A program made the position numbers and the translations under genes. A stretch of 41,616 nt of DNA, from contig JAOZPT010000019.1 of the NCBI GenBank assembly GCA_029932605.1, forward strand, positions 1 to 41,616, in the 5' to 3' direction. The number at the start of each line of letters is the position of its first letter. The first letter of the stretch is position 1. The DNA comes from Candidatus Zixiibacteriota bacterium. Lineage in GTDB: Bacteria; Zixibacteria; MSB-5A5; UBA10806; 4484-95. A model generated the notes under the pieces. That model was given only the letters and a program-made list of their open reading frames with translations, did no database searches and had not been told where the DNA came from. Shown here one piece after another: positions 9,014 through 25,540 of this stretch.

Positions 9014-12000
9014 TTATTGGTTCTTAGGTACTACGGCTTTGTTGCCACGGATAATTGCAGTAGGACCACCACCACCAGCAGGCGGGGTTTCAGGGCAGTA
9101 CAGGATCTCAGGGTTTTGTCCCTTGAAGTACGCAACCAGGAAGGTTACGTCGGAACCTGAATATGAGCAACTACCGTTGGCATCGCCAGCAGAGTACAAC
9201 CAACCACCTTGATACGGGCAGCTGTCTGGAGGAGGATCACCAAGGCCTTTGAAGTAACGGACGCTGTAGGTAACATCGTTACCCGCAGGACTGCCGTCAC
9301 CATTGGCGTCGCCAGGCACGTAATCACAACCCACTTCACCAACCACGAATGTTACAGGAACAGTCGGGTTCGGATTGTTCGGGTCGTTTGTCGTGAAGTT
9401 AATTGAGCCTGTGTAGGTGCCTTCCTCTAAATCAGTGGCATCCATAGTAGCGGTTATATCAATCGGCGGATCGCCATAGGGGATTGAACCGGTTGAAATA
9501 TCAATGGACAACCATGGCAGCTGGAACGACGGCAGTATGCATAACGACAGGTCTAGGCCGTTGGAGTTACTGTCGAGAAGCTGAACCAGCGCTGAACCAT
9601 CCCACTGATAAGCCAGTGCGTCACCGTCATAAGAGCTTGCCCACAGGAATACGCAGTCTTGCGGGTCGCTGATACCCTGGATGGAAACCCATCCGGCAGC
9701 AAAGTCTAATGGCGGATTGATTGGACCGGAATACCAGTTCATCTCGTAAACGCCGGCATAGAGTAAGCCTGTCGGTACCGGTGTTATCGATGTAGTATAA
9801 GTAGCTACAACAGCACCGGGGAGTCCAGCATCATCTTCATAGAAGATGACCTCGAAAACCGCCGGATCTTCGAAGCACTCAGACCATGGCGGTAAACCAA
9901 GATCGAGACCCCAGAAACCGATTCCTTCGATTGGAGCGGTCAGATCCCAGAAGTTCTCATAGCACAGATAATCTGGATCAGTGCCAATATCACTTGTATG
10001 GAATGACCAGTAATCGGCATCCGGTAGGTTGGGCGACTGGCTGAACATTGAGCCTTCCGGACACTGTGGCGGAGGCGGAGGCATTTCGCCTTCGGTAATC
10101 TCAATTGTATAATTACCAGCATCGCCACCATAACCGTCAACAATAATGTAGTAGTCATGTCCGGCATAGCAGACCATACCGATCAACTCAGAATCAAACA
10201 GGAATGGATCGGAGCAGGCATCATCGTTGCAGGCGTAATACGGGCTCTCGCAGACATCCTCATAGACAAACAGCTTCGTGTCATAATCGGTTGTACCAAG
10301 ACAGAGCGTAATATCTATAGGTATATCCTCAGTGGGTGTGAACACATACACGACATCCGGTGAGGTAGATGAATACGGGCATACCTCCTCGTAGTCGTCA
10401 GTGTAGCCCACGATAGTTCCATCGTCGGTATATGGCAGACCTGTGACAACAGTTGCATTGGCACAATCATCGCCACCCTGCAGGATGATATTGGGATCAG
10501 GAACATTCGGTTCACCGGTATACGGAGCTTTATCTTCCGGTGTATTGGCGAACTTAGCATCGGGGCTGTTTGAGCCTTCGCCGATTGTCCAGTTTGGCGC
10601 CTGACCACCTGTGGCAGGTCCAACAGGTTCAGATGTCCGCAGAATCGGATTATCTATTGTGCAGTTGGCGCTGAATGTTAATACACTACCAGCCTCACCA
10701 ACGTTGCTGACAGATATAACTCCAGTGTCCGAACCACCTGGAGGAGCATTTCCTTCAAGTGAAGTCGGATCGACTGAGAAAGCAGGCGTTGCTACAGGCT
10801 GGAAGGAAGCCACATATTCAAGCACGCAGGGCCAACCATCAAACACCGACGGGCCAACCCATAACCAGTAAGTATTACCAGCTGTAAGGGTTTGTGTCAG
10901 GCTGGCGGTATCGCATGGGTCAGCGGTAGCGCTGGCCATAATCACCAGGTTGTCACAACCTCCAGTTCCATCGATAAAGAATATCAATATCGGGAACTCA
11001 CCCACGGCAGTAAAGCTGTAGGGTCCGGTTTCATCGCAAACCCACTCGAACCAGTCGGTATCGCGGTAGTTGGAACCACCAAAGAGGAATGTTCCGGATT
11101 CACCGCAGATAACATCGCCCGGGGTGATTGGCTGGAATACTGGCGGCTCAGAGTTACAACCGCCGTTGTATGTGTCGTCGTATTCATCACCGCATGGAGG
11201 CTCACCCTCGAGGATGCCCTCAGGCGGACACTCAACATTGCAGGGCTCTTCTTCGGTGATATTCAATATGTATTCACCGCAGTCGGAACCAAAGCCGTCA
11301 ACGACAACATAGTAAGTTCCAGGCGGGAAGTTGCCCGAAACCTGGGACTGCGTGCCGCAATAGTCGTCGTTATACATGAACTCGGTTCCGGGTCCACTGC
11401 AACATTCATCAGCGAAGACAGCAAGCTTGGTGTCATAGGAGGAACCGCACAACGAGACGGTCACATACATCAGCTCTGTCATCTCCATCTCGTAGATAAC
11501 ATCAGGACCATCCGAACCTTCTATGTCGCATTGGTTTGTGTAGTTACAGCTATTGTCTTCATCGGTATACGGCAATGACGGAATGATGTATGGATTGCCG
11601 CACCAGTCTCCCTCCGGAGGCTCTGATCCGGCAACGATACTTAAATCGTACTCCGGAATGCAATCCGGTGTTGGCCAGGTATCAACCATTACATAGTAAG
11701 TGCCAGCATCCAGGTAGGTATTAAAACCATGAGGAGTGGCGGAGCTACTGGTTGATATGGCAATACAAACACTCGGATCGGGTGGGCACATATCATCAAG
11801 CAAAAAGCCGGTGTATGTGGTTGTATACGGGTCAAGCGTGAACTGATACCAGCCAGAGGAGGTGACGTTGAACTCATACATGAAGTCCTCGCCGCCATCG
11901 TAAGAACCAAGGCAGGTCTCGGAGAAATCATTACCATAACCGCAGGTTGCGCCGTTGTGTGTATACGGAATGACCAGCGGATCTACGACTAAATCTGGTG

Positions 12001-14074
12001 TGCATTCATAAGGCTCGGCTGTAAACCAGCCCACATACTCAAGCACGCAATCCCAGCCAGAGAATACCGACGGGGCAGCAAACATCCAGTATGTTCCGGG
12101 TCCAACTATGGCTGAAATTTCAACCGTATCGCATGGGTTACCAGTGCCGCTGGTTAAGATTACCAGGTTATCACAGCCATTGGTTCCATCGATGATGAAG
12201 GTTGCGAGCGGGAATTCAGCCACAGCTCTCCAGGTGAGTTCCATTGTACCATCAGTATTGACCCACTCGAACCAGTCGGTATCGCGGTAGTTGCTACCCT
12301 CAAAGAGGTATGTTCCGGACTCGGCGCACATGATGTCGCCGGGGTTAATCGGCTGGAATACTGGCGGGGTTGAGTTACAACCGCCGTTATAGTTATCGAC
12401 ATATTCATCACCGCATGGAGGCTCATTTTCAGGTATGCCACCATCCGGGCAGGTAACGTCGCAAACTCCAGCTTCCGTGACATTAACGGTATATGAGAAG
12501 TTCATGCCCTGACCAGCTTGATTCGCTGCATAAGCGGGCCAGTAAATTACAGCACGAGGACCACCGGGAACAGCCAGGAAGGTCATATCATAACCGCCAT
12601 ATCCGTTAGGACAGTCTATGAATTCACCTGAGTCGCGAATGATATAGTCATCACAGGCGCAATCGTCCATGAGCACTATACCAACAGTCCAGAGATCCTC
12701 TCCTTCACCGCACATGACTATATTGATGTCGTTTGATTCATAGGGCAGGTCAATAGTGTACCAAACACCATTCCAATCCAGCACACCCGGGCAATCAACT
12801 GTGGCGCCTATGGTTGTGCCGGTGCCAGTGGCAGGATATGGCCCAGTGATAGCTTCAGCATCTTCGCAGTCGTCGTTAGCTGGAGCAGGTGAGGATTCGG
12901 TAATTGAGAGATCAAAGCTCTCAATACAATTTGGGGAGGGCCAGGTATCTACCATAATGTAATATGTTCCAGTAGTGAGGGCAATACCGGTAATAGTCTG
13001 ATTTCCACTGCTGCTGGAGGAGGTGGCAATACAGATTTCGTCTGAGAAGCCTGGAGGACATTCCTCATCAATCGCTAATCCTACCCATGAGGCGTCGGAT
13101 GTAACTGATACATCAACTGTAACATCCGATGTAACAGTAACCTCATAAATAATATCCTCACCACCATCGTAACTACCAAGGCATGTTTCATCGTAATCAT
13201 TTACTCTGCCGCAAGTAGTCTGGCCTGCATCAAGATAGGGCAGGTCGCCAGGGAGACTGACCGTAAGAGGCGAATCGCAGTTATCTCCGGGTTGTGGCAC
13301 ATAACATTCAACTCCAATTACAGAGAGATCGTAGTTGCCACAGCCACCACCCCAACCATCAACTACGATATAGTATGTATTTCCACCTGTTACCGGTAGA
13401 TCTGCAATTACAGACCAATAATTATCGAGAGGACAAAGATCAAAAGCATCATCGTTACAGGCATAGTATGGGCTCACGCATTCATTCTCATAAACGAATA
13501 GTTTTGTGTCGTAATCAGTATTTTCATTACAGAGGGAGATTTCAATGCATGTATCAACTTCGGGTGTATAAGAATATACAACGTCAGGAGAGGTTGAACT
13601 GGAGGGACACTCCTCATCATAGTCATCAGTAAAGCCACACGTAGTACCAGTATCGTAATAAGGAAGGCTGGGAATTGGTGTAGCTGTAGCGCAGTCATCG
13701 CCGCCCTGGAGGATTACGTTAGGGTCAGGAGGAGGAGCTATGTTAACGGATGGTTTTTTCTCCTTTACATATTCCTCAACTTCAACATCCCCAAAACGAG
13801 CGATAACAGAGGGAGCCATCCCGGTAGTGACAGCTTTTGAACCTTTGGCTGTCAATATATCTCTATCAAGCGCTCTGGCTTCCTCGGCTGCCATCTTGGC
13901 CTGCTCTGCTTTATATTGTTCCATCTTCTCAGCAATGAGAGCCGCTTCCTTAAGATCTTTCTGGGTAACCGGCTTCTTTGATGAGAGAACATCTTTAGAA
14001 ATCGCAGAGAAGGACAATGAAGCTAACGCTACAACCAACCCAACGACAATGATCACTAAAGAAAGTTTTTTCAT
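9014..14074 (-). CDS. Giant secreted Cys/Asp/Glu-rich protein: ~8 PPC-like beta-sandwich repeats, Ig/BACON-like domain, C-terminal dockerin-like domain
   Basis: GGAG RBS 6 nt before ATG 14074 (track start 14086); signal peptide MKKLSLVIIVVGLVVALASLSFSA; repeated DTKL..Y/CNDD and YYIVVDG motifs; paired GDANG loops at the C-terminus. Confidence 0.85.
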   Translation of the reverse strand: MKKLSLVIIVVGLVVALASLSFSAISKDVLSSKKPVTQKDLKEAALIAEKMEQYKAEQAKMAAEEARALDRDILTAKGSKAVTTGMAPSVIARFGDVEVEEYVKEKKPSVNIAPPPDPNVILQGGDDCATATPIPSLPYYDTGTTCGFTDDYDEECPSSSTSPDVVYSYTPEVDTCIEISLCNENTDYDTKLFVYENECVSPYYACNDDAFDLCPLDNYWSVIADLPVTGGNTYYIVVDGWGGGCGNYDLSVIGVECYVPQPGDNCDSPLTVSLPGDLPYLDAGQTTCGRVNDYDETCLGSYDGGEDIIYEVTVTSDVTVDVSVTSDASWVGLAIDEECPPGFSDEICIATSSSSSGNQTITGIALTTGTYYIMVDTWPSPNCIESFDLSITESSPAPANDDCEDAEAITGPYPATGTGTTIGATVDCPGVLDWNGVWYTIDLPYESNDINIVMCGEGEDLWTVGIVLMDDCACDDYIIRDSGEFIDCPNGYGGYDMTFLAVPGGPRAVIYWPAYAANQAGQGMNFSYTVNVTEAGVCDVTCPDGGIPENEPPCGDEYVDNYNGGCNSTPPVFQPINPGDIMCAESGTYLFEGSNYRDTDWFEWVNTDGTMELTWRAVAEFPLATFIIDGTNGCDNLVILTSGTGNPCDTVEISAIVGPGTYWMFAAPSVFSGWDCVLEYVGWFTAEPYECTPDLVVDPLVIPYTHNGATCGYGNDFSETCLGSYDGGEDFMYEFNVTSSGWYQFTLDPYTTTYTGFLLDDMCPPDPSVCIAISTSSSATPHGFNTYLDAGTYYVMVDTWPTPDCIPEYDLSIVAGSEPPEGDWCGNPYIIPSLPYTDEDNSCNYTNQCDIEGSDGPDVIYEMEMTELMYVTVSLCGSSYDTKLAVFADECCSGPGTEFMYNDDYCGTQSQVSGNFPPGTYYVVVDGFGSDCGEYILNITEEEPCNVECPPEGILEGEPPCGDEYDDTYNGGCNSEPPVFQPITPGDVICGESGTFLFGGSNYRDTDWFEWVCDETGPYSFTAVGEFPILIFFIDGTGGCDNLVIMASATADPCDTASLTQTLTAGNTYWLWVGPSVFDGWPCVLEYVASFQPVATPAFSVDPTSLEGNAPPGGSDTGVISVSNVGEAGSVLTFSANCTIDNPILRTSEPVGPATGGQAPNWTIGEGSNSPDAKFANTPEDKAPYTGEPNVPDPNIILQGGDDCANATVVTGLPYTDDGTIVGYTDDYEEVCPYSSTSPDVVYVFTPTEDIPIDITLCLGTTDYDTKLFVYEDVCESPYYACNDDACSDPFLFDSELIGMVCYAGHDYYIIVDGYGGDAGNYTIEITEGEMPPPPPQCPEGSMFSQSPNLPDADYWSFHTSDIGTDPDYLCYENFWDLTAPIEGIGFWGLDLGLPPWSECFEDPAVFEVIFYEDDAGLPGAVVATYTTSITPVPTGLLYAGVYEMNWYSGPINPPLDFAAGWVSIQGISDPQDCVFLWASSYDGDALAYQWDGSALVQLLDSNSNGLDLSLCILPSFQLPWLSIDISTGSIPYGDPPIDITATMDATDLEEGTYTGSINFTTNDPNNPNPTVPVTFVVGEVGCDYVPGDANGDGSPAGNDVTYSVRYFKGLGDPPPDSCPYQGGWLYSAGDANGSCSYSGSDVTFLVAYFKGQNPEILYCPETPPAGGGGPTAIIRGNKAVVPKNQ
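9080..9328 (-). other. Dockerin-like C-terminal domain, copy 1
   Basis: CDYVPGDANGDG..NDVTY..GDANGSC...SDVTFLVAYFKG; two Ca-loop/helix repeats. Confidence 0.8.
11040..12425. repeat. Intragenic direct repeat (duplicated module, offset 1221 bp)
   Basis: 33-bp identity 11040-11072 = 12261-12293; 24-bp identity 11181-11204 = 12402-12425. Confidence 0.9.
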
Positions 14075-14378
14075 AAGTTTCTCCAAACATTAGTTATGGT
14101 TAACATAACCTTACTTAACATTTCTAAGTTTACCTGATTTCCTCACTTTTAATGTTAACGATTTTCATGTTAACGTTAGTTTAAGTGATTTTGCTTTATA
14201 GGCATATCCTCCATTTTAACAAGGTTAGAAATTTGTGATAGTTTAACTTAATAAATATTCCACTTTAGATTTCTGAAATATATTCTCCTTACTTATTTCA
14301 TATTTACACCAGACGTTTTTCAACTGCGCCAGAAGAAGACAGTACAATTCGTCCGTAGACCCTCTTGTTACATTAATA

Positions 14379-14701: not shown

Positions 14702-17700
14702 TCATCTTATTTTTTTGATGAAATCATGGTTTTTTCCTATTTTTATAATTTCTGGGCTAAAATGCGTGTAACCTAGTGGCGGAGTTCGATGGCAGAATAA
14801 TATTTCCGGGTTGTAAGCTTTATAATAAGCAACCAGAAAACTAATATCTGAACCCGTAAAACTACAATTACCGTTGACATCACCAGCTGCATATAGCCAG
14901 GTTGAGAGAGAGTCATCCAAGCAGGAATCAGGAGGAGGAAGTCCCAATCCCTTGAAATAGCGAACACCGAATGTTACATCGTTGCCCATAACATCACCGT
15001 CACCATTGATGTCGCCGGGGACGTAATCGCAACCGGGAGATAAAGGCATAACCGTAAGTGTGACCGGGATACTTCCGGAGATAGTGTCCGGGTCGTTTGA
15101 GTTAAAATTTATTGAACCGCTGTAATCACCCGGTGATAAATCTGTGGCGTCGAGGGTTACCTGCAGGATGGCGCTATCTGCGGGGGTGATATAATATGGA
15201 CCGCCATCAAACCCTATCCATGAATATTCACTGCTGAATGTTATAAATAATATACCCTCGCCACTATTGTAAATTGTGATATCGTGCACCGACAGGCTGT
15301 CCTCATATAAACTGTCGGTGATGCCATCAGCCGAGAAGGAGAGTTCTGGTGTCCCGGAAGCGCTAACACTAAAAATTACCGGTATATCAACATCAGGATT
15401 GACGGGATCATTGCTTATAAGATTGATGTTGCCGGTGTATATATTTTCATTTAACATGGTGGCATCGAAAGTAACGGTAATTACAGAGCTATCATGGGCA
15501 TCAACAATCCCCGTTGTAGGTGAGACCAAAAGCCAGCTTGGTTGAATGTATATCGCCAGATTGTTATGCATGTAGGGGGCGTTGTATAATATCTCAAGGC
15601 CGTCAGAACCGTCGATGTTTTCAATTCCTATGGTGGCGTTCTGAAGGTCATCTGAACCGGGATCCATCGTGCTATACTGCAGGGTGATTTCACCGCTGGG
15701 ATAAAGAATTGCCTGAAATGTCAATGAGCCGGTATCATTATAATTCGGTATTTCTATGAAGCTGACTATGAAACGATTATTGAAGCTGTCATTATAATAA
15801 TATATGGCGCCAGCCTGAGATGGGTCGAGGTCGTCCCACCAGATTGCAATCATATTGTTTGGATCGTCTGGATTTGGTATATAAGTGTTGTTATATGATG
15901 TCGAACCACTGCCAAATGATAGCATTCCATTTGAGCAGATATAAAGCGAAACATAGTCGTTTTCATAAAATGGAAACGCAAAACCGATAGATATCGGACC
16001 TTCATAATCGTCCATTCCTAAAACTATGGGGGTGCCGATTTCCGATATGTCAATCCAGTTATATACGGGGCCATTTGGCTCATCTGAATCTATCCATCCG
16101 TAACCGAAATTATCCGGACCTCCCTGACCGGTGGTTATAGGCGGGGAATAAGACTTATCGGTTGCACTTGCTTTTTCAGTGTCAACCTTATAATAACCAA
16201 CCGACCCTGGTCTGTGCAGGAGTGATGTAATTTCCTGCTTGGCATTATGACAGAGCGGGTCAAAGGTTTCTGTTAAAAGGTTGAAAAATAGAAAACTATT
16301 TCCATTATTGATGATGAAAAGCTCACGAGTCTCTATATTTCCTGGTTGTGTGGTTACGTTAAACGATGTGGGATTATATGATAACTCTGGTGGCTCCGGC
16401 GGGATAGTGCCAATGACAACGACATCATCGATATACCAACCAGCCTTGTTGACATGATAATCCGAACCGAATCTCCATCTGAACATAACATTATGATTAT
16501 AATAAACTGAAATATCAAAGCTGGCGTGGATCCAACCGTTACTTGAACCTGTATAGCCGGGTTCATTAAGGGCATAGATATCGTGGTCAGGGTAACCGCC
16601 ATCGGGTGAAATCAATGTCCATGAGTTGCCATCATCAGTAGATATGGAGACATTTCCACCATCCCAACCATTTTCGATATCATACCAGTGGTAGAATTCT
16701 AAACGTGCTTCAGAGAGGGCTAAAAACATATCTGGACTGATAAGGTTGTCATCGGCGTTATCTGGATATTCGCCGTCGAGTATTGTCCCCCAAACCTTTG
16801 TCCCCGACCATGCACAAGGTGGACCATAGGTTGGCTCTCCCCATTGCCATACGCCTTCTCCAGAATAATCGCCATTACTGTATTCAAATGTCTCGGCTGG
16901 CGTGATTGAAAAATCAAGAATGTTAGTCGCGCCGTCCTGTATGAATATAGAGTCAAGTCCCCGGCTGTACCCAATGGCTATAACCTGAACTCTGTATGAT
17001 GAACCTGAAGGCACGGCTAAAAACTGATAAAAACCATTGGTATCTGTTGTTTCGGGCGGTATGGGAGTATCCAGAATATTTACTTCAGCTCCATCGATGC
17101 TGTCACCAATTACTGAAGTAACGGTTCCCTGTAATATCGCAGGTGTAGCTGGCGTTAAAGCGAAATCTTGATGAGCTGTGTCACCGGCTGTAATGTAGAT
17201 AGATTGTTGTTGTGGTAGATAGCCATAATATGAAGCTTCAAGAGTAAAGGTCGTATCGGCAGGAAGACCAAGTCGAAAGTAACCGGAGATATTTGCATAG
17301 GTCTCGGCTTGACCATCTACGACCCTAATATGTGCTGGGAGGGGGTTTGAGGTGTTTATATCAGTAATATAACCATCTACATAACCAAACCCCTCAGCTA
17401 ATATACAAGCCCGATACAGGTTAATGATGCCATGACCATAATCGTTATCCTCTCCTGGTGTGCCGAGGTCCTCAGCGGTTAGCATCAAAATATCTTTTAT
17501 GGTGTTAGCATCAAGATTTGGATTGACCTGTCGAATAACGGCGACAGCACCCGCTATATATGGAGATGCTATAGAGGTTCCACTTTTATAACTATAGTCT
17601 CCACCAGGTACAGAACTTCTAACATTTACTCCGGGAGCGACAACCTCAGGTTTAATAGCCAGATCACCAGTGGCGCATTCTGTAGGTCCCCGGGCTGACT

Positions 17701-18862
17701 GGCTGTCTATCGGCAGTGAAGGTTCGTTACCGTCAACGGCACCCACGGAAAAAACATTATAGTATGTGGTGGCTCTATCGGCAGGTGAGCGCAGGCCGTC
17801 GAAACCCTCATCACCGGCGGAAAATATTATAACAGTACCAGCAGCTTCGCAGTTATCAATAGCGTTCCAGAACGTTTCGTCGCAGTCAGGATATTCCCAG
17901 CTATCAGGAATTCCCCATGAGTTTCCACACACATCGGGATTGTCCTGGGTGGTGGGATTATCATCCGGATCAACGATCCATTCAAGAGACATCAAAGTGG
18001 TTGAGATAAATTGTTCATGACTTCCATAGAATGCAGGAGAGGTTGAGATCCATGAGGCATCGATAGCAACACCAATGGTATCTCCATCGGGGGTTCGACC
18101 GCATATTATGCCCATGGTATGGGTGCCATGATCGCTGTAATCTGTTGGAAAACCCGAACCGCCGTTAGGATCAAACCAGCTTTCATCACAATCGCCATCA
18201 TCATCGACATCACCGCGGAAACGGTCAGCTAAAGCGGGATGGTAACCATCAACTCCGGTGTCGACATGAGATACAAGTCGGCCAGCGCCGGTATAACCCA
18301 TAGCCCAGGCTTGGGGAGCATGGATTCGTTCAAGCCCAATCTCATGGCCATAATGCAAGCGATCAGGTTTTTCAAAATTGTGCTCTTCGACAGGTTTAGT
18401 CAATTCTACTCGGTAATCGAGAGTAATTTTCTCGATCTCCTCTAAATTTGCAAAGTACATTATTGCTTCTTTGGTGGCCTCAACAGCTATGAGATTAACC
18501 AGCCAGAATCTTTTGATGTTTTGGATTTTACCATAGGCCTCAAGCTCGTTCATTGCGGGTATAACCGACTGCTGGGTTCTTGTGGCCACCTCCTGGAGGG
18601 ATGTTATTACCTGATAATTTCTCTGAGCGAGCGTTGCCCTTTGTAGGGTCAATTGCTGATTCAGAGCATAGATGTTAGCCTGTTTGGCCATTACCAGGAT
18701 TACTTTGTGCATATCAGATGGGTTGCTGTTTGTTAGCTTTTTTTGTAGTTGTGGGCTTATTGTTCCGCTCCAGCAGAGAACTTGCAGATGAGCAAATATA
18801 TAAGCTATGATTGTATATTTAAGAAGCTTCATGTAAAATACTTTCGTATTTAAAACACTCAA
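14702..18862 (-). CDS. Secreted S8 subtilase (bacillopeptidase F-like) with propeptide, 2 carboxypeptidase-regulatory-like domains, jelly-roll/MAM-like, NIDO-like, Ig/BACON-like and dockerin-like domains
   Basis: Catalytic triad motifs VDTGVD, HGTHTMG, GTSIASP; GPTEC..IKPEVVAPG; YGHG; signal peptide from ATG 18832 (probable true start). Confidence 0.92.
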   Translation of the reverse strand: MSVLNTKVFYMKLLKYTIIAYIFAHLQVLCWSGTISPQLQKKLTNSNPSDMHKVILVMAKQANIYALNQQLTLQRATLAQRNYQVITSLQEVATRTQQSVIPAMNELEAYGKIQNIKRFWLVNLIAVEATKEAIMYFANLEEIEKITLDYRVELTKPVEEHNFEKPDRLHYGHEIGLERIHAPQAWAMGYTGAGRLVSHVDTGVDGYHPALADRFRGDVDDDGDCDESWFDPNGGSGFPTDYSDHGTHTMGIICGRTPDGDTIGVAIDASWISTSPAFYGSHEQFISTTLMSLEWIVDPDDNPTTQDNPDVCGNSWGIPDSWEYPDCDETFWNAIDNCEAAGTVIIFSAGDEGFDGLRSPADRATTYYNVFSVGAVDGNEPSLPIDSQSARGPTECATGDLAIKPEVVAPGVNVRSSVPGGDYSYKSGTSIASPYIAGAVAVIRQVNPNLDANTIKDILMLTAEDLGTPGEDNDYGHGIINLYRACILAEGFGYVDGYITDINTSNPLPAHIRVVDGQAETYANISGYFRLGLPADTTFTLEASYYGYLPQQQSIYITAGDTAHQDFALTPATPAILQGTVTSVIGDSIDGAEVNILDTPIPPETTDTNGFYQFLAVPSGSSYRVQVIAIGYSRGLDSIFIQDGATNILDFSITPAETFEYSNGDYSGEGVWQWGEPTYGPPCAWSGTKVWGTILDGEYPDNADDNLISPDMFLALSEARLEFYHWYDIENGWDGGNVSISTDDGNSWTLISPDGGYPDHDIYALNEPGYTGSSNGWIHASFDISVYYNHNVMFRWRFGSDYHVNKAGWYIDDVVVIGTIPPEPPELSYNPTSFNVTTQPGNIETRELFIINNGNSFLFFNLLTETFDPLCHNAKQEITSLLHRPGSVGYYKVDTEKASATDKSYSPPITTGQGGPDNFGYGWIDSDEPNGPVYNWIDISEIGTPIVLGMDDYEGPISIGFAFPFYENDYVSLYICSNGMLSFGSGSTSYNNTYIPNPDDPNNMIAIWWDDLDPSQAGAIYYYNDSFNNRFIVSFIEIPNYNDTGSLTFQAILYPSGEITLQYSTMDPGSDDLQNATIGIENIDGSDGLEILYNAPYMHNNLAIYIQPSWLLVSPTTGIVDAHDSSVITVTFDATMLNENIYTGNINLISNDPVNPDVDIPVIFSVSASGTPELSFSADGITDSLYEDSLSVHDITIYNSGEGILFITFSSEYSWIGFDGGPYYITPADSAILQVTLDATDLSPGDYSGSINFNSNDPDTISGSIPVTLTVMPLSPGCDYVPGDINGDGDVMGNDVTFGVRYFKGLGLPPPDSCLDDSLSTWLYAAGDVNGNCSFTGSDISFLVAYYKAYNPEILFCHRTPPLGYTHFSPEIIKIGKNHDFIKKIR
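14777..15031 (-). other. Dockerin-like C-terminal domain, copy 2
   Basis: CDYVPGDINGDG..NDVTF..GDVNGNC...SDISFLVAYYK; aligns closely with copy 1. Confidence 0.8.
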
Positions 18863-19692: not shown

Positions 19693-21372
19693 TTGGGGCA
19701 GTTGTTTTCAGATATAGCATCTTTGACGAATTTTTTGATCCATAAAGGCGATAAATCAAATCCCGCTGATGTAAAAAAACAAGGTGGGTATGATTTTGAT
19801 GATTGGCTTACATTTTCAATAGTCAATAATAATTACTGGTGTAACGATAATACAAAAACGGGGATTATGAATGATTCCATAGGCGTATTGGAAAACCTCA
19901 TTGATGATGGCATAAATTTGTTCGAAAAAACAGAACATTTAGATTCTAATAATTTATCATCTGAAACATATTCATATAAGATCTTACCGGCGGATGAATT
20001 AAAATACTTGGTCAAAACTCAGACTGTTTCCCTGATACTGGACATTCAAAAATCGGAAGAGCTTGTTGGTTTGTTGAAAGAGGCTTTTTCTAAGAATAAA
20101 GTTGGTGATGGTGAACAGCTTTTAAATAAACAGTATAATAATCAGGCAGACACTACAGCACTGGAGGTCATCGCATATGATGGGTTTAGAAAGACCACAC
20201 CTTATTTACATGATAATTCCCATTTTCAGGGTGATGTATCGGTACAGTTGAAACCGGATTTTATATTTGATAAGCTCATATGGAAAGAAAATCAATCTGT
20301 ACCTTTAAAAATAAACACTAATGATGGTGATATTTTTTATTATAAGATTCCTGCCGAAAGATTGATGGAATTGTTGGAGAGATATCCTGATAGGATATTG
20401 ATAGAGGTAAAAACAACAGGGGAAGACGAAACATCGATAAACGATAATAAATTATTTTCTCAATCAACAAATCCTTCTAGTAGGAAAAATCAACAACATA
20501 AATATATTATATTTGATTTAAAAGCATTGCTTGAACAAAAAGATTTTAACCGTCAAATGAGCATTCAAAAGTTCAGGGTGATTGAAAAAACCGTCATAAC
20601 AGATATCCGGACTGCAACATGGCAAACAGGTATCAAGGATATTGTTGAAGAAAATTCAGGGAATAGTCAAACAGTTGTTTCTGATAACAACCACTGTAAG
20701 ATACGAAAGATGAAACAGTCATCTGCTAACGGATTTAAAACGCTGTTAACCTCAGATAACGATAAGTTAACCGAAACCACTGTTAATTCTTTTAAGGATT
20801 TTGCTGAGAGCATAAGACCTCGAGTGATAGCGGATAATGTTGTACCCAGGCAGTATCCAGCAATAAAAATTAACGAAAGGCTTGATTTAGCAAGTAGCAG
20901 ACTATCAGCTGAAAATGGTTCACCATGTATAGCTATTGAAAATATTGATAAGATTATAAACCAGTTAAGGTCAAGGTTGATGGTTATTCCGGGACGCACT
21001 CAAATGACCATCAAATTAAAACCAGAACATTTGGGTCGTCTTACCATTGACTTATCTTATGATGGTAAAAGGGTAGAGGTATTGTTTAAAGTGGAAACCC
21101 TTGGGGTAAAACAGATTCTTGAGGCTGAAATAATGCGATTGAGAACGGATTTAAATATTGACAATTGCAAGATTGAAATGGCCTTAAAGGATTTCCAGGA
21201 TTTTAATCCCTCATCTAACGGACATTTACATTCAAAAACGGCAGGGGGCTTTTCATGTCGCTATTTGCCGTCGGCTAATGGGCAAGTTGATGAGGATAAT
21301 AATAAAGATGAGAAGTTAAGTATTGGATGTTCGAAGAAATACCATGATGGAGAAATCGATCTATTTATTTGA
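19693..21372 (+). CDS. fliK: Hook-length control protein FliK
   Basis: C-terminal MTIKLKPEHLGRLTIDL signature; position before flgD; divergent N-terminus. Confidence 0.85.
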   Translation: MGQLFSDIASLTNFLIHKGDKSNPADVKKQGGYDFDDWLTFSIVNNNYWCNDNTKTGIMNDSIGVLENLIDDGINLFEKTEHLDSNNLSSETYSYKILPADELKYLVKTQTVSLILDIQKSEELVGLLKEAFSKNKVGDGEQLLNKQYNNQADTTALEVIAYDGFRKTTPYLHDNSHFQGDVSVQLKPDFIFDKLIWKENQSVPLKINTNDGDIFYYKIPAERLMELLERYPDRILIEVKTTGEDETSINDNKLFSQSTNPSSRKNQQHKYIIFDLKALLEQKDFNRQMSIQKFRVIEKTVITDIRTATWQTGIKDIVEENSGNSQTVVSDNNHCKIRKMKQSSANGFKTLLTSDNDKLTETTVNSFKDFAESIRPRVIADNVVPRQYPAIKINERLDLASSRLSAENGSPCIAIENIDKIINQLRSRLMVIPGRTQMTIKLKPEHLGRLTIDLSYDGKRVEVLFKVETLGVKQILEAEIMRLRTDLNIDNCKIEMALKDFQDFNPSSNGHLHSKTAGGFSCRYLPSANGQVDEDNNKDEKLSIGCSKKYHDGEIDLFI

Positions 21373-21383
21373 AAGGAGGTGAA

Positions 21384-22088
21384 ATGGCTAACATACCCAA
21401 TATTACGTTTTATGATCCGACCCTTGACGGCTATGATTACTCGGTGAAAAGTGACCTGGGGAAAGAAGACTTTTTGCATTTGTTAGTAACCCAGCTTCGT
21501 TACCAGGACCCTCTCTCACCGATGCAGGATCAGGCTTTTATTGCACAGTTAGCGCAATTTTCTCAGCTTGAACAGCTGGAGAACATGACCAGCTCACTTG
21601 AGACATCAACACAGGTTGATTATGTCATGAGCCAGACTATTGCCAACACTATGGCGACAACGTTAATAGGTAAGACCGTTGTCGCTGAAGGTGCGGATTT
21701 TTATCTGGCTTCAGATGGTCAGGCAAATTTAAGCTACCATCTTGATACCGAAGCCAGTTCTGTTACGGTTAAGATTTATAATGAGAGCGGTGCACTGGTA
21801 AGAACCATCCAACAAGAGGAAATCCCCAAGGGAAATAATACTTATATCTGGGATGGCCGTGATGATAATGGGAACCAGGCAAGTCCCGGCACCTATTCGT
21901 ATGAGGTAAGCGCCTCGACTCTTACCGGTGAGAACGTTGATGTTTCCAAAAGAGTAATCGGTCCTGTTGAGTCGGTTAAATATGTTGATGGTAGAGCTTA
22001 CCTTATAGTTGGCGGTTACAAGGTAGATTTATCGACGATAATTGAGATTCTGGATGGAGATAGTTTAAACGTTAATTATAACAGTTAA
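21384..22088 (+). CDS. flgD: Hook-capping protein FlgD
   Basis: FLHLLVTQLRYQDPLSPM, WDGRDDNG; AGGAGG RBS supports ATG 21384. Confidence 0.96.
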   Translation: MANIPNITFYDPTLDGYDYSVKSDLGKEDFLHLLVTQLRYQDPLSPMQDQAFIAQLAQFSQLEQLENMTSSLETSTQVDYVMSQTIANTMATTLIGKTVVAEGADFYLASDGQANLSYHLDTEASSVTVKIYNESGALVRTIQQEEIPKGNNTYIWDGRDDNGNQASPGTYSYEVSASTLTGENVDVSKRVIGPVESVKYVDGRAYLIVGGYKVDLSTIIEILDGDSLNVNYNS

Positions 22089-22116
22089 ATTTGACTGTTT
22101 GGAGAGGAGGTGAATA

Positions 22117-22503
22117 ATGAAGATATCCGATGTTGATAGAAATGTTGTTTCCGTGATTGAAAAGCCTTTTTCTATAAGGGAAAGTCCAACTATTCCTGAA
22201 AAGTCAAGGCAGTTTCAGAAGACTCTTGAATCAGAATTGTCCGTTGTTACTGATTTAAAATTTTCCAACCATGCTATTGACAGGCTTTCTACCAGAAAAG
22301 TCAAATTTGATAAACAGACTATAAGTAGGTTAAATAAGGCGGTTAGCAAAGCTGGTCAGAAGGGGGCCAGCCAATCGTTGGTATTGCTTGATGAGTTGGC
22401 TTTTCTGGTTTCGGTCAAAAACAAGATGGTTATTACCGCATTGGAAGCTGACAAAATGAAGGAAGGAGTATTCACTAACATAGACAGTGCGGTGATAGGT
22501 TAA
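22117..22503 (+). CDS. Flagellar operon protein (TIGR02530 family)
   Basis: LKFSNHAIDRL, KGASQSLVL, VITAL, GVFTNIDSAV; flgD-flgE position. Confidence 0.88.
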   Translation: MKISDVDRNVVSVIEKPFSIRESPTIPEKSRQFQKTLESELSVVTDLKFSNHAIDRLSTRKVKFDKQTISRLNKAVSKAGQKGASQSLVLLDELAFLVSVKNKMVITALEADKMKEGVFTNIDSAVIG

Positions 22504-22582: not shown

Positions 22583-25279
22583 ATGATGGCATCACTTTTT
22601 GCTGGAGTTTCCGGCTTGCGCAACCACCAGGTAAAAATGAATGTGGTTGGCGACAACATTGCGAACGTAAATACTATTGGCTTCAAGATGGGGCGAGTAA
22701 CGTTCCAGGAGGCTTTAGTGCAAACTATGCGTGGAGCGAGCAGGCCCACAGCAACCAGGGGTGGCTCAAATCCGCTCCAGTTGGGTTTGGGGATGTCTCT
22801 TTCCACTATAGATAACATTTTCTTGCAGGGTGGTCTTGAGACAACCGGTCAGATAACCGATCTGGCCATTCAGGGTTCGGGCTTCTTTGTTCTCTCTAAT
22901 GGCCAACAGGAATATTACACACGTGCTGGCGCTTTCGGTTACGATGCTAACTCCAACATGGTTAATCCGAGTAACGGATTTATCCTTCAGGGGAAAATGG
23001 CCGATGTTGATGGAACCATACCGGCTAACGCCCCCGTGGGGAATATAACTCTGCCGTTTGGCCAGCAGGACCCGGCGAGGGCTTCAACCGAGATGACGCT
23101 GGGTTTGAACTTGGATTCAAATGCCACTGATTCATTAGCCTCGCTTGTTCAGGCAGGTAGTACCAATGTGACAACTGTTTCTGGTTATGCACAAAACGGT
23201 TCAGGGGGTACTCATACGATAACGATTACAGGTGAGAATGCTTCTTTCTCTCAGCTTTCCGGTAATCATGCTAATGTGCTGGATGATTTTAGCCTGGGAG
23301 ATGCAACAGCTACTTCAAACTTGGATGGTGCAGGTAATCTTAATCCTGGTACTACATACTACTATACTGTAATCGCTGTGAATGAACTTGGTCAATCTAC
23401 AGGTGTTGAGTTTAGCCATACACTTGTAGCTGGTAACGATTCGATAGTTATTGATTGGTCGGCATATACCGATCTGGCAGATGCTGATAAAATCAATATT
23501 TATAGAACAACGGTAGCGGGAGATTATACTCAGGGTAATAACGGATGGATTGCCGAGGTCGATGTTTCCGGATCAACTCCACCTTCAACATATACCGATC
23601 TTGGTGACACTCCCATTTCAAGCATCAATCCACCTATTGTTAACTCCACTTTAAACCTTACTGGTCAGGTTAAACTTTCTGATCTTGGGATTACCAACGC
23701 TACAAATTTTCAAATAAGCGTTGATAACGATGACTGGGTTACACTTACCCAGTTAACGGTGGACTCGACCGTGAACGATTTGATTGCAGCAATAAATTCA
23801 AGTGTTCAGGGAGTTACAGCCTCGATTGTTGACGGTCAATTGGAATTAAAACGGGATTATGCAGGTAGTCCCAGTGTTTATAACGTTAGGGTTCGTGATC
23901 TTCCTTACCCTGACCAGCTTGATGATTTTGGCGTTGGCGATGCCACGGCTACGTCAAATCTGGATGGTGCGGGTAATCTTACGCCCGGTACCACATACTA
24001 TTATACCGTAATTGCTGTAAACAACAACGGAAAGTCAACGGGTTTTGAATTCAATCAAACAGTGGCTGCCGGTGATGACTCGATGGTTATCGATTGGTCA
24101 GCTTATGCTGACTTGGCTGACGCTACCAGCATTAGTATTTACCGAACCACAGTTCCTGGTGATTACACCTCGGGGAGCAATGGTTTAATTGCTAATGTTG
24201 ATGTTACAGGTGGAACCACAACATATACAGACCTTGGTGCAGCGCCTTTAAATAATGAGAATCCACCTACTGTAAATACAACCATTCCTAATATCTGTTT
24301 GAAAGTATTTGGAACATCAACGTTTACTGTGAATAATGGTACAGCCTCAACCATTCAGGCGGTTGATGTGTTTACGCCTACTGTAACAGGCATTGACTTT
24401 GATCCTGTTGCACTGACTTTAATTACTGACCCCAATACTGGTATTGTGACCGGCATTTCCGATTTAGGAGGGGGTGGAGTTACAATTTCAACCGGCCAGG
24501 GTGGCTTGGTTGGTGATCCTGATGGCACGGGGCCCTTGACATCATCGACATTGATAATTGAAACTCGTGATACGCAACATGCAACGAGTATTACTGCCTA
24601 TGATTCCCAAGGTGGAAGACATACAATAACGATCACTTTCACGAAGAGCTGGGAAAACAATATGTGGTATTGGGAGGCCTCTGTCAGCGGTAACGAGGAA
24701 ATTCGCACTGGCGGTTCAGGTAGTGTTAATTTTAATGCTGACGGTTCCTTGGCCTCATTTAATTTTGAGGGTGGAGCTACTTCATTAAGAATAGAACCGA
24801 ACAATGGGGCGGAGGAAATGGACATAACTATTTTGGCTGGAACGCCTGGTGGTTATGATGGTCTTACAGGTTTTGCCGCCTCATCGACCGCTACTGCCCG
24901 CTCACAGGATGGGTATGGTCTTGGTGTTCTGGCTAATATCTCAATTGACTCCTCAGGAACGATAACCGGCATATTTACAAATGGTGTTTCCCGGGTGCTG
25001 GCTCAGATTTACATTGCCGATTTTAACAATCCAGCCGGTTTAATAAAAGCTGGTAAAAATCTGTATCAAAGCTCTGCCAACTCTGGTAATGCCATTTTAG
25101 GTGTGCCCGGTTCTACGACATCCTCGACTATTACATCGGGAGCGCTGGAGATATCAAATGTTGACCTGGCTCAAGAGTTTACCAATATGATCGTATCCCA
25201 GAGGGGCTTCCAAGCCAACGCCAGAGTGATAACAACCTCTGATGCAATGTTGCAAGAGCTGGTAAACCTTAAAGGGTAA
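22583..25279 (+). CDS. flgE: Hook protein FlgE, enlarged (898 aa) with inserted domains
   Basis: NIANVNTIGFK, DLAIQGSGFF, YTRAGAF, YDSQG, LEISNVDLAQEFTNMIVSQRGFQAN. Confidence 0.96.
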   Translation: MMASLFAGVSGLRNHQVKMNVVGDNIANVNTIGFKMGRVTFQEALVQTMRGASRPTATRGGSNPLQLGLGMSLSTIDNIFLQGGLETTGQITDLAIQGSGFFVLSNGQQEYYTRAGAFGYDANSNMVNPSNGFILQGKMADVDGTIPANAPVGNITLPFGQQDPARASTEMTLGLNLDSNATDSLASLVQAGSTNVTTVSGYAQNGSGGTHTITITGENASFSQLSGNHANVLDDFSLGDATATSNLDGAGNLNPGTTYYYTVIAVNELGQSTGVEFSHTLVAGNDSIVIDWSAYTDLADADKINIYRTTVAGDYTQGNNGWIAEVDVSGSTPPSTYTDLGDTPISSINPPIVNSTLNLTGQVKLSDLGITNATNFQISVDNDDWVTLTQLTVDSTVNDLIAAINSSVQGVTASIVDGQLELKRDYAGSPSVYNVRVRDLPYPDQLDDFGVGDATATSNLDGAGNLTPGTTYYYTVIAVNNNGKSTGFEFNQTVAAGDDSMVIDWSAYADLADATSISIYRTTVPGDYTSGSNGLIANVDVTGGTTTYTDLGAAPLNNENPPTVNTTIPNICLKVFGTSTFTVNNGTASTIQAVDVFTPTVTGIDFDPVALTLITDPNTGIVTGISDLGGGGVTISTGQGGLVGDPDGTGPLTSSTLIIETRDTQHATSITAYDSQGGRHTITITFTKSWENNMWYWEASVSGNEEIRTGGSGSVNFNADGSLASFNFEGGATSLRIEPNNGAEEMDITILAGTPGGYDGLTGFAASSTATARSQDGYGLGVLANISIDSSGTITGIFTNGVSRVLAQIYIADFNNPAGLIKAGKNLYQSSANSGNAILGVPGSTTSSTITSGALEISNVDLAQEFTNMIVSQRGFQANARVITTSDAMLQELVNLKG
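23279..24286 (+). repeat. Duplicated ~125-aa FN3/Ig-like module within flgE
   Basis: Copies at 23279-23653 and 23918-24286; 89 of 125 residues identical by manual alignment. Confidence 0.92.
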
Positions 25280-25330: not shown

Positions 25331-25540
25331 ATGATTAAACTGACAAGACTCAACGATTCGGAACTTGTGATAAATACCGACTTGATAGAATACATCGAGG
25401 CTATTCCGGATACTATTATCAGTCTGACCACAGGGAAAAAGATAATGGTAAAAGAGACCGTTGATGATGTGATTAACAAAGTGGAGAATTTTAAGAGAAG
25501 GACCAATCAGATAGAAATAAAAGATGAAAAGGTGAGGTGA
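25331..25540 (+). CDS. flbD: Flagellar protein FlbD (SwrD family)
   Basis: MIKLTRLN..IN.DLIE.IE..PDT.I.L..GKK..VKE. Confidence 0.93.
   Translation: MIKLTRLNDSELVINTDLIEYIEAIPDTIISLTTGKKIMVKETVDDVINKVENFKRRTNQIEIKDEKVR

Follow-up and report, generated by a model that had tools for sequence, protein, structure and literature searches.

The flgE gene in the genome of an uncultured sea-floor bacterium of the Zixibacteria, located in the window studied here (the whole stretch of DNA analysed, 41,616 nt), codes for a hook protein containing two similar modules, each of about 125 aa. The locus raises the questions of what this module is, where it came from, and what two copies of it do on a flagellar hook.

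The flgE Gene and Its Locus

Four of four Pfam families (Flg_bb_rod, LlgE_F_G_D1, FlgE_D2, and Flg_bbr_C) and TIGR03506 were matched over their cut-offs in the 898-aa product, and TIGR02489 under its cut-off. The predicted model aligned with Salmonella FlgE (1wlg) with Z 20.4 over 275 residues. According to the Pfam and 1wlg matches, the D0/D1 termini and D2 of the rod-hook family are present. As is typical of flgE, the gene follows fliK, flgD, and a TIGR02530 gene, in a flagellar operon that looks complete, and it is distinct from the rod genes, since two shorter rod-type paralogues are coded on another contig (C10) of the same genome. Judging from its sequence, the protein is a working FlgE with a long arm inserted in D2.

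An assembly artefact was considered and rejected: contigs of all four other sequencing runs (four studies) cover both modules, the copies have diverged, and a cluster of the two-copy FlgE protein is present in NCBI, Logan, ENA, and JGI assemblies. None of these contigs spans the whole stretch, and no joint skipping a module was found in those of the four runs; the few strain differences among them are scattered single changes. Metagenomes sharing at least half of the words of the stretch are from vents and sediments (five rows from five studies, besides the possible source; one of the rows belongs to the same study as that source), and no RNA dataset is among the listed holders of this DNA. 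No Rfam family was found in the window, and folding of a hairpin before flgE is no better than that of shuffled sequences (z −0.8).

FliK of this operon (19693–21372) has 559 aa, which would predict a longer hook; enterobacterial FliK has about 400 aa. The ORF at 25331–25540 presumably codes for FlbD. An acidic, Cys-rich repeat protein of 1690 aa is coded on the minus strand at 9014–14086, against the flagellar operon, between fliJ and the motE-like and fliK genes. Its G+C content is about 51% vs. 41% for the genome; Pfam and NCBIfam gave no match to it, and we take its end to be dockerin-like. Also coded inside the flagellar cluster (14702–18862, minus strand) is a subtilase of 1386 aa; it combines carboxypeptidase-regulatory, MAM, NIDO, and Ig domains with a weak dockerin domain. 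In the same genome, enlargement without the module is also seen in two proteins coded on contig C10, flagellin (about 751 aa) and FlgL (about 639 aa).

Domain Architecture of the Hook Protein

An insert of ~490 aa begins after the first strand of D2 and splits this domain, and residues 165–779 of the model aligned with Treponema D2 (Z 16.1). The arm (residues 186–662) matched FliD D2-D3 with Z 9.2 (170 aligned residues) and 8.3; its first half has no sequence match in PDB. Between the two modules, a flagellin-IN-like segment had been noted in the first-pass annotation, and PF07196 was indeed matched there over the cut-off. A nested layout is predicted, in which D2 encloses the arm, the arm carries module 1 and the IN domain, and the IN domain encloses module 2. 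The modules would be the outermost parts of the subunit, because module 1 lies before the IN domain and module 2 inside it. In the model of the full FlgE, both modules have pLDDT of about 90, and the pTM is 0.54, so that the orientations of domains are uncertain. Positions of all parts are listed in Table 1.

Table 1. Parts of the hook protein gene and the genes directly before it, with positions in the window.
Feature	Position	Strand	Basis and remarks
flgE, 898-aa hook protein	22583..25279	+	four Pfam families, TIGR03506, 1wlg match
N-terminal D0/D1 half, aa 1-165	22583..23077	+	Pfam matches at aa 8-35 and 95-150; low pLDDT at aa 1-96
D2 first strand, aa 166-177	23078..23113	+	strand 170-176; ~490-aa insert starts after it
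FliD-like outer arm, first half, aa 178-232	23114..23278	+	also in module-free relatives
Module 1 (site 1), aa 233-357	23279..23653	+	AlphaFold2 model, FN3 half mapping, SPO1 and crAss001 matches
Flagellin_IN-type domain, distal arm, aa 358-445	23654..23917	+	PF07196 E 9e-7; also in module-free relatives
Module 2 (site 2, loop of IN domain), aa 446-568	23918..24286	+	72% identity to module 1
Outer arm, return half, aa 569-662	24287..24568	+	alignment with module-free relatives; secondary structure
Remainder of D2, aa 663-778	24569..24916	+	PF07559 at aa 661-778
C-terminal D1/D0 half and stop	24917..25279	+	PF06429 at aa 852-896; helix 859-897
Context: fliK (559 aa), flgD, TIGR02530 gene	19693..22503	+	directly upstream of flgE; profile matches

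Comparison of the Two Modules

The two copies reported earlier were borne out: the modules are 123–125 aa long, both are in frame, and 89 of 123 aligned residues are identical. The second copy was found in the genome search with E 1e-51, and the likeness is therefore not due to chance. Nucleotide identity of the modules is 69% (80, 87, and 39% at the three codon positions), and 51 of the 89 identical residues are encoded by different codons. The NG86 method gave dN 0.19 and dS about 2.8, with a ratio of 0.07 and dS near saturation (pS 0.73). Between orthologues, dN/dS of the module was 0.013, 0.09, 0.042, and 0.046 in the four pairs computed, similarly to the neighbouring domains, and no sign of diversifying selection was found in these pairs. 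The modules are under purifying selection, and the earlier claim that synonymous differences reflect selection on the protein agrees with the ratios both between the copies and between orthologues. The G+C content of the module is normal for the genome, and the module was not found elsewhere in this genome, in flagellin or in any other gene.

Fold of the Module and Its Relationship to FN3

The isolated module was modelled in AlphaFold2 as a domain of seven strands (pLDDT 96, pTM 0.89). The Pfam FN3 family (PF00041) matched the modules with 16.2 and 19.8 bits, in the F strand only and under the curated cut-off of 25 bits. When compared in hhalign with an FN3 profile, module residues 20–49 corresponded to FN3 59–88 (strands F-G, probability 98.4) and residues 53–109 to FN3 14–58 (strands B-C-C'-E, probability 98.2); the profile was made of 54 canonical bacterial FN3 units drawn from matches of the module profile, a choice that favours likeness. 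The canonical chain order A-B-C-C'-E-F-G is not that of the module. The F-to-C spacing is 44–51 in all 62 FlgE modules and mostly 52–67 across tandem FN3 junctions, and the short spacing was also found in 29 other entries, one of them an FlgE fragment. The short spacing indicates the lack of strand A from the stretch joining G to B. Both in this link and upstream of F, the A-strand profile scored about −3, a level also given by shuffled sequences, compared with +17 in canonical units; strand A thus gave no signal in the link, and the N-terminal strand cannot be recognised as A. A transfer of strand A to the N-terminus was considered and rejected, since there was no A-strand signal there.

At the level of sequence, these alignments establish the module as an FN3-derived domain with swapped halves and a seventh, N-terminal strand. 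The first-pass annotation proposed a circularly permuted FN3. F-G does precede B-C-C'-E, but with no strand A in the G-B link and an N-terminal strand that is not A-like, the permutation is not a clean one, and the term describes the module only approximately. A plain junction of tandem FN3 domains is ruled out by the spacing, the single-domain model, and the clean insertion into module-free relatives. The swap may suit insertion by bringing the termini together. Both halves of canonical FN3 are homologous to the module, and the Trp, Tyr-Arg, and LxPGTxY motifs are common to both; however, the order differs, the G-B link is without strand A, and sequential structural matches are partial, as FN3 domains aligned with the module model with Z up to 3.8 over about 60 residues. 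Prediction of a module homodimer scored 0.00, which is no answer and evidence neither way.

Relationship to Phage Virion Proteins

The module model was compared with 48,161 solved chains. The best match was the insert of the SPO1 major capsid protein gp6.1 (9vel, residues 283–401), with Z 9.9 and rmsd 3.0 over 105 aligned residues, followed by IG1 of the crAss001 muzzle protein gp44 (7qok, residues 169–294) with Z 8.9; both are domains inserted in structural virion proteins. The module, as a predicted model, is a seven-strand sandwich with the same strand order as the SPO1 capsid insert and crAss IG1 (105 aligned residues). Module 2 within the full model matched the SPO1 capsid with Z 10.3. 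The Foldseek match to SPO1 was weak (E 1.8e-3, TM 0.51) and agrees with this top rank, and 19 matches with E < 0.001 (best TM 0.71) were obtained against predicted viral proteins. In sequence searches, module 2 matched the major head protein family PHROG 752 with E 1.5e-5, and SPO1 9vel was matched weakly (E 0.005). The module was found by tblastn in 92 phage records (best E 7e-6), the listed ones being major tail, tail sheath, and tail proteins. Its relatives also occur in phage-type proteins of the tail tube, sheath, tail fibre, and baseplate (baseplate J), and bacterial repeat proteins contain as many as 12 of them. PF25731 (crAss_MUZ), found in the Atlas with 0.83, is a lead only. Kinship with phage virion and tail proteins, which the first reading of the sequence had supposed, is thus seen both in predicted structure (SPO1, crAss001) and in sequence (PHROG 752 and the phage records).

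IG1 of the crAss001 muzzle was linked to C2-set domains and not to FN3 in its description (PMC10172136). No paper on the SPO1 capsid structure and, among the papers listed, no earlier description of a permuted phage FN3 were found in the literature searched, which covered few subscription journals. The SPO1 capsid and crAss muzzle domains, described separately, are tied together by the module. No FlgE chain was among the listed fold matches of the isolated module, which does not prove a different fold.

Matches below crAss001 were spider latrotoxins, and the next non-toxin row had Z 4.5. The matched beta-sheet domain of latrotoxins (9go9, 356–490; 7ptx, 363–494; 7pty, 362–468) has Z 6.9–5.0 and 11–13% identity, hinting at the same phage-type fold, but Z under 8 may reflect a common arrangement only. 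In addition, two modules are present in a protein to which its source gives the name PilX, and the swapped module may have entered type IV pili too.

Distribution in Zixibacteria

The named homologues are from Zixibacteria. Among 62 matches, 57 are FlgEs, of which three carry two modules, 37 carry one, and 17 carry none; complete proteins of these groups have 898–918, 750–773, and ~640–660 aa, respectively, and related FlgEs with two modules span 865–918 aa overall. A single module is always at site 1 and a second one always at site 2, and module-free FlgEs align cleanly across both sites. The survey of copy number suggested in the first-pass annotation has thus been carried out, and it gave a series of 0, 1, and 2 modules at two fixed sites.

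An FlgE match was found in 221 of 285 genomes of the phylum, and 197 of the 221 are without the module. It is present in flgE of 24 genomes: this one and eight of nine others of its family, 10 of 14 in a sister family (the remaining four without FlgE match), and all five in a third family. Of the 24 other genomes with FlgE in these three families, 23 have therefore kept it. Only this genome, among the 285, has a two-module flgE. The module was absent from 18 further FlgEs from other families and from 35 loci found by means of a relative, some of them in Latescibacterota and Cloacimonadota. In two genomes of another family, FlgE reaches ~790 aa through duplication of Flagellin_IN at site 2. A further 29 genomes of the phylum gave weak module matches only. 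Six of these were examined. In five, the matched protein was of the DUF4815 phage type, with confirmation by Pfam/PHROG for one of them, and in the sixth it was a canonical FN3 protein. The DUF4815 proteins of the five genomes carry the swapped module and are a possible local reservoir of it.

One FlgE from Gemmatimonadales, of about 800 aa, has an insert of another kind that does not contain the module. FlgEs of six records titled Ignavibacteria nest among those of Zixibacteria, some of them nearly identical, and these records are probably mislabelled.

History of the Module

In a tree computed from D0-D2 only (60 rows, a subset of relatives), at least two changes are required to explain where the module is present, as one group of three module-bearing proteins sits among module-free ones. 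Together with the shared site 1, the pattern suggests a single insertion and later losses or exchange of segments. Two-copy FlgEs do not group in this tree, and one is sister to a one-copy protein with support 100/99. The copies studied here are 72% identical to each other, compared with 60% or less between copy 2 and other site-2 copies. The scatter of two-copy forms and the closeness of these two copies imply repeated duplication or conversion. One clade for site-2 copies (p-AU 0.20) and one clade for all FlgE modules (p-AU 0.44) were neither rejected nor shown.

In an unrooted tree of modules, the sequences closest to those of FlgE are two modules from phage tail sheaths. As the search that found them started from an FlgE module and the tree includes just three named phage rows, a phage donor is no more than plausible. 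The module would have entered flgE of Zixibacteria once, at site 1, from a phage or a bacterial repeat protein, been lost or exchanged in some lineages, and been copied to site 2 more than once. The anatomy of the protein and its history of duplication are regarded as very probable. A broader reading, in which a rearranged FN3 cassette moves among phage capsids, tails, baseplates, and bacterial surface polymers, and in which a phage gene resembling that of a tail sheath gave it to the hook of Zixibacteria, where it was copied between two sites and, as a virion domain, tunes hook mechanics or binding, is rather doubtful.

Possible Function of the Modules

A hook has about 120 subunits (PMC5069557), and about 240 modules would thus be displayed on it. 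The reading tentatively preferred is that the two modules form the outermost layer, which would thicken and brace the hook by adding contacts between subunits, as D3-D4 do in Campylobacter. There, D3-D4 provide additional contacts between subunits, and when these domains are deleted, more than 90% of cells have broken stubs (PMC5097172); when grafted into Salmonella, they slow it, for which the authors blame a stiffer hook (PMC5069557). These contacts and the deletion phenotype, together with low dN/dS of the module, favour bracing, as do the point of insertion in D2 shared with Campylobacter and Caulobacter D3 and the retention of the module in the three families. The best solved matches, inserted in structural virion proteins, point the same way, and crAss IG2 serves as an assembly platform (PMC10172136). 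Orthologue dN/dS of 0.013–0.09, like that of neighbouring domains, argues for a constant rather than a varying role, and duplication of the IN domain at site 2 in two genomes looks as if bulk at this site were favoured. Several points stand against bracing. Of seven regions compared in one-copy relatives, the module shows the lowest conservation (59 and 70% identity, vs. 63–85 and 70–87%), most FlgE-bearing genomes of the phylum do without it, Ig-like domains of phages often stick out loosely and make no contacts (PMC8718954), and purifying selection would be expected from the need to fold and be exported alone.

The modules could instead be weak multivalent adhesins for glycans or minerals, by which the hook would hold sediment particles or other cells. 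Phage Ig/FN3 domains have been proposed to bind cell-surface carbohydrates weakly, a proposal left unverified by that source (PMC8718954), an acidic flagellar surface has been proposed to bind minerals in Geovibrio (PMC11532411), and the DNA of this stretch occurs in vent and sediment metagenomes. The modules are indeed acidic (16 and 14 D/E vs. 2 K/R), with a mean of 12.8 D/E in FlgE modules vs. 5.4 in non-FlgE modules, but the IN and D2 domains beside them are equally acidic. Moreover, neither a binding site nor a conserved patch specific to FlgE was identified in the module, its nine invariant residues look structural, and the much longer filament, whose flagellin lacks the module, would be better placed for adhesion, which is thus unlikely. 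Near-neutral accretion, i.e., a mobile domain landing in tolerant loops at the tip of the arm and then kept by selection for folding and export only, would explain the patchy presence, with at least two changes on the core tree, the scattered two-copy forms, and the IN domain duplicated at the same site elsewhere. It is quite unlikely, as the module is retained across three families with synonymous sites near saturation and dN/dS < 0.1, and as clean deletion to the 640-aa form, evidently viable in kin, would save about 250 residues per subunit. Armour hiding the conserved core of the hook from flagellotropic phages, proteases, or grazers would agree with the outermost predicted position of the modules, with their conservation being lowest over long distances, and with signs that lineages have exchanged segments; such a role is very unlikely, because close orthologues are without diversifying selection and strains differ in few, scattered single changes. 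For a display or decoy surface in general, diversification would be expected, and with orthologue dN/dS of 0.01–0.09 it is not seen. Bracing therefore stays the tentative choice.

Comparison with Known Systems

No earlier description of an FN3 domain in an FlgE hook was found in titles and beginnings of abstracts, nor any report on a Zixibacteria FlgE hook in literature covering few subscription journals. The size of this FlgE is ordinary; new are the traceable, rearranged domain shared with phages and the series of 0, 1, and 2 copies. The series points to FlgE loops tolerating the display of a folded domain, and at its fixed sites it represents a ready-made experiment on outer domains of the hook.

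The SPO1 capsid insert and crAss001 IG1 are only 13–14% identical to the module, and the host protein here is a subunit of a bacterial flagellum. Among axial flagellar proteins, flagellins with Ig-like outer domains resemble this FlgE in decoration with a beta-sandwich and in duplication, and nearly half of outer-domain flagellins have an Ig-like domain (PMC11532411). That survey concerns filaments, not hooks, and its main text names neither fibronectin nor phage.

Enlarged hooks are known, with outer domains of no traceable origin, whereas here the origin of the domain can be followed to a rearranged FN3 that also occurs in virion proteins of phages. FlgE of Campylobacter jejuni with D3-D4 (851–865 aa; 5az4, 5jxl; PMC5069557, PMC5097172) is similar in size to this FlgE, and 365 residues of 5az4 align to the model, with D0-D2 conserved. 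D3 of Caulobacter FlgE (5ay6) and D3-D4 of Campylobacter are inserted after the first strand of D2, as here (PMC5069557). Unlike in these two hooks, the duplicated module matches phage proteins best and not hook structures, the arm resembles FliD D2-D3, and the copy number varies from 0 to 1 to 2, which sets it apart from Campylobacter D3-D4.
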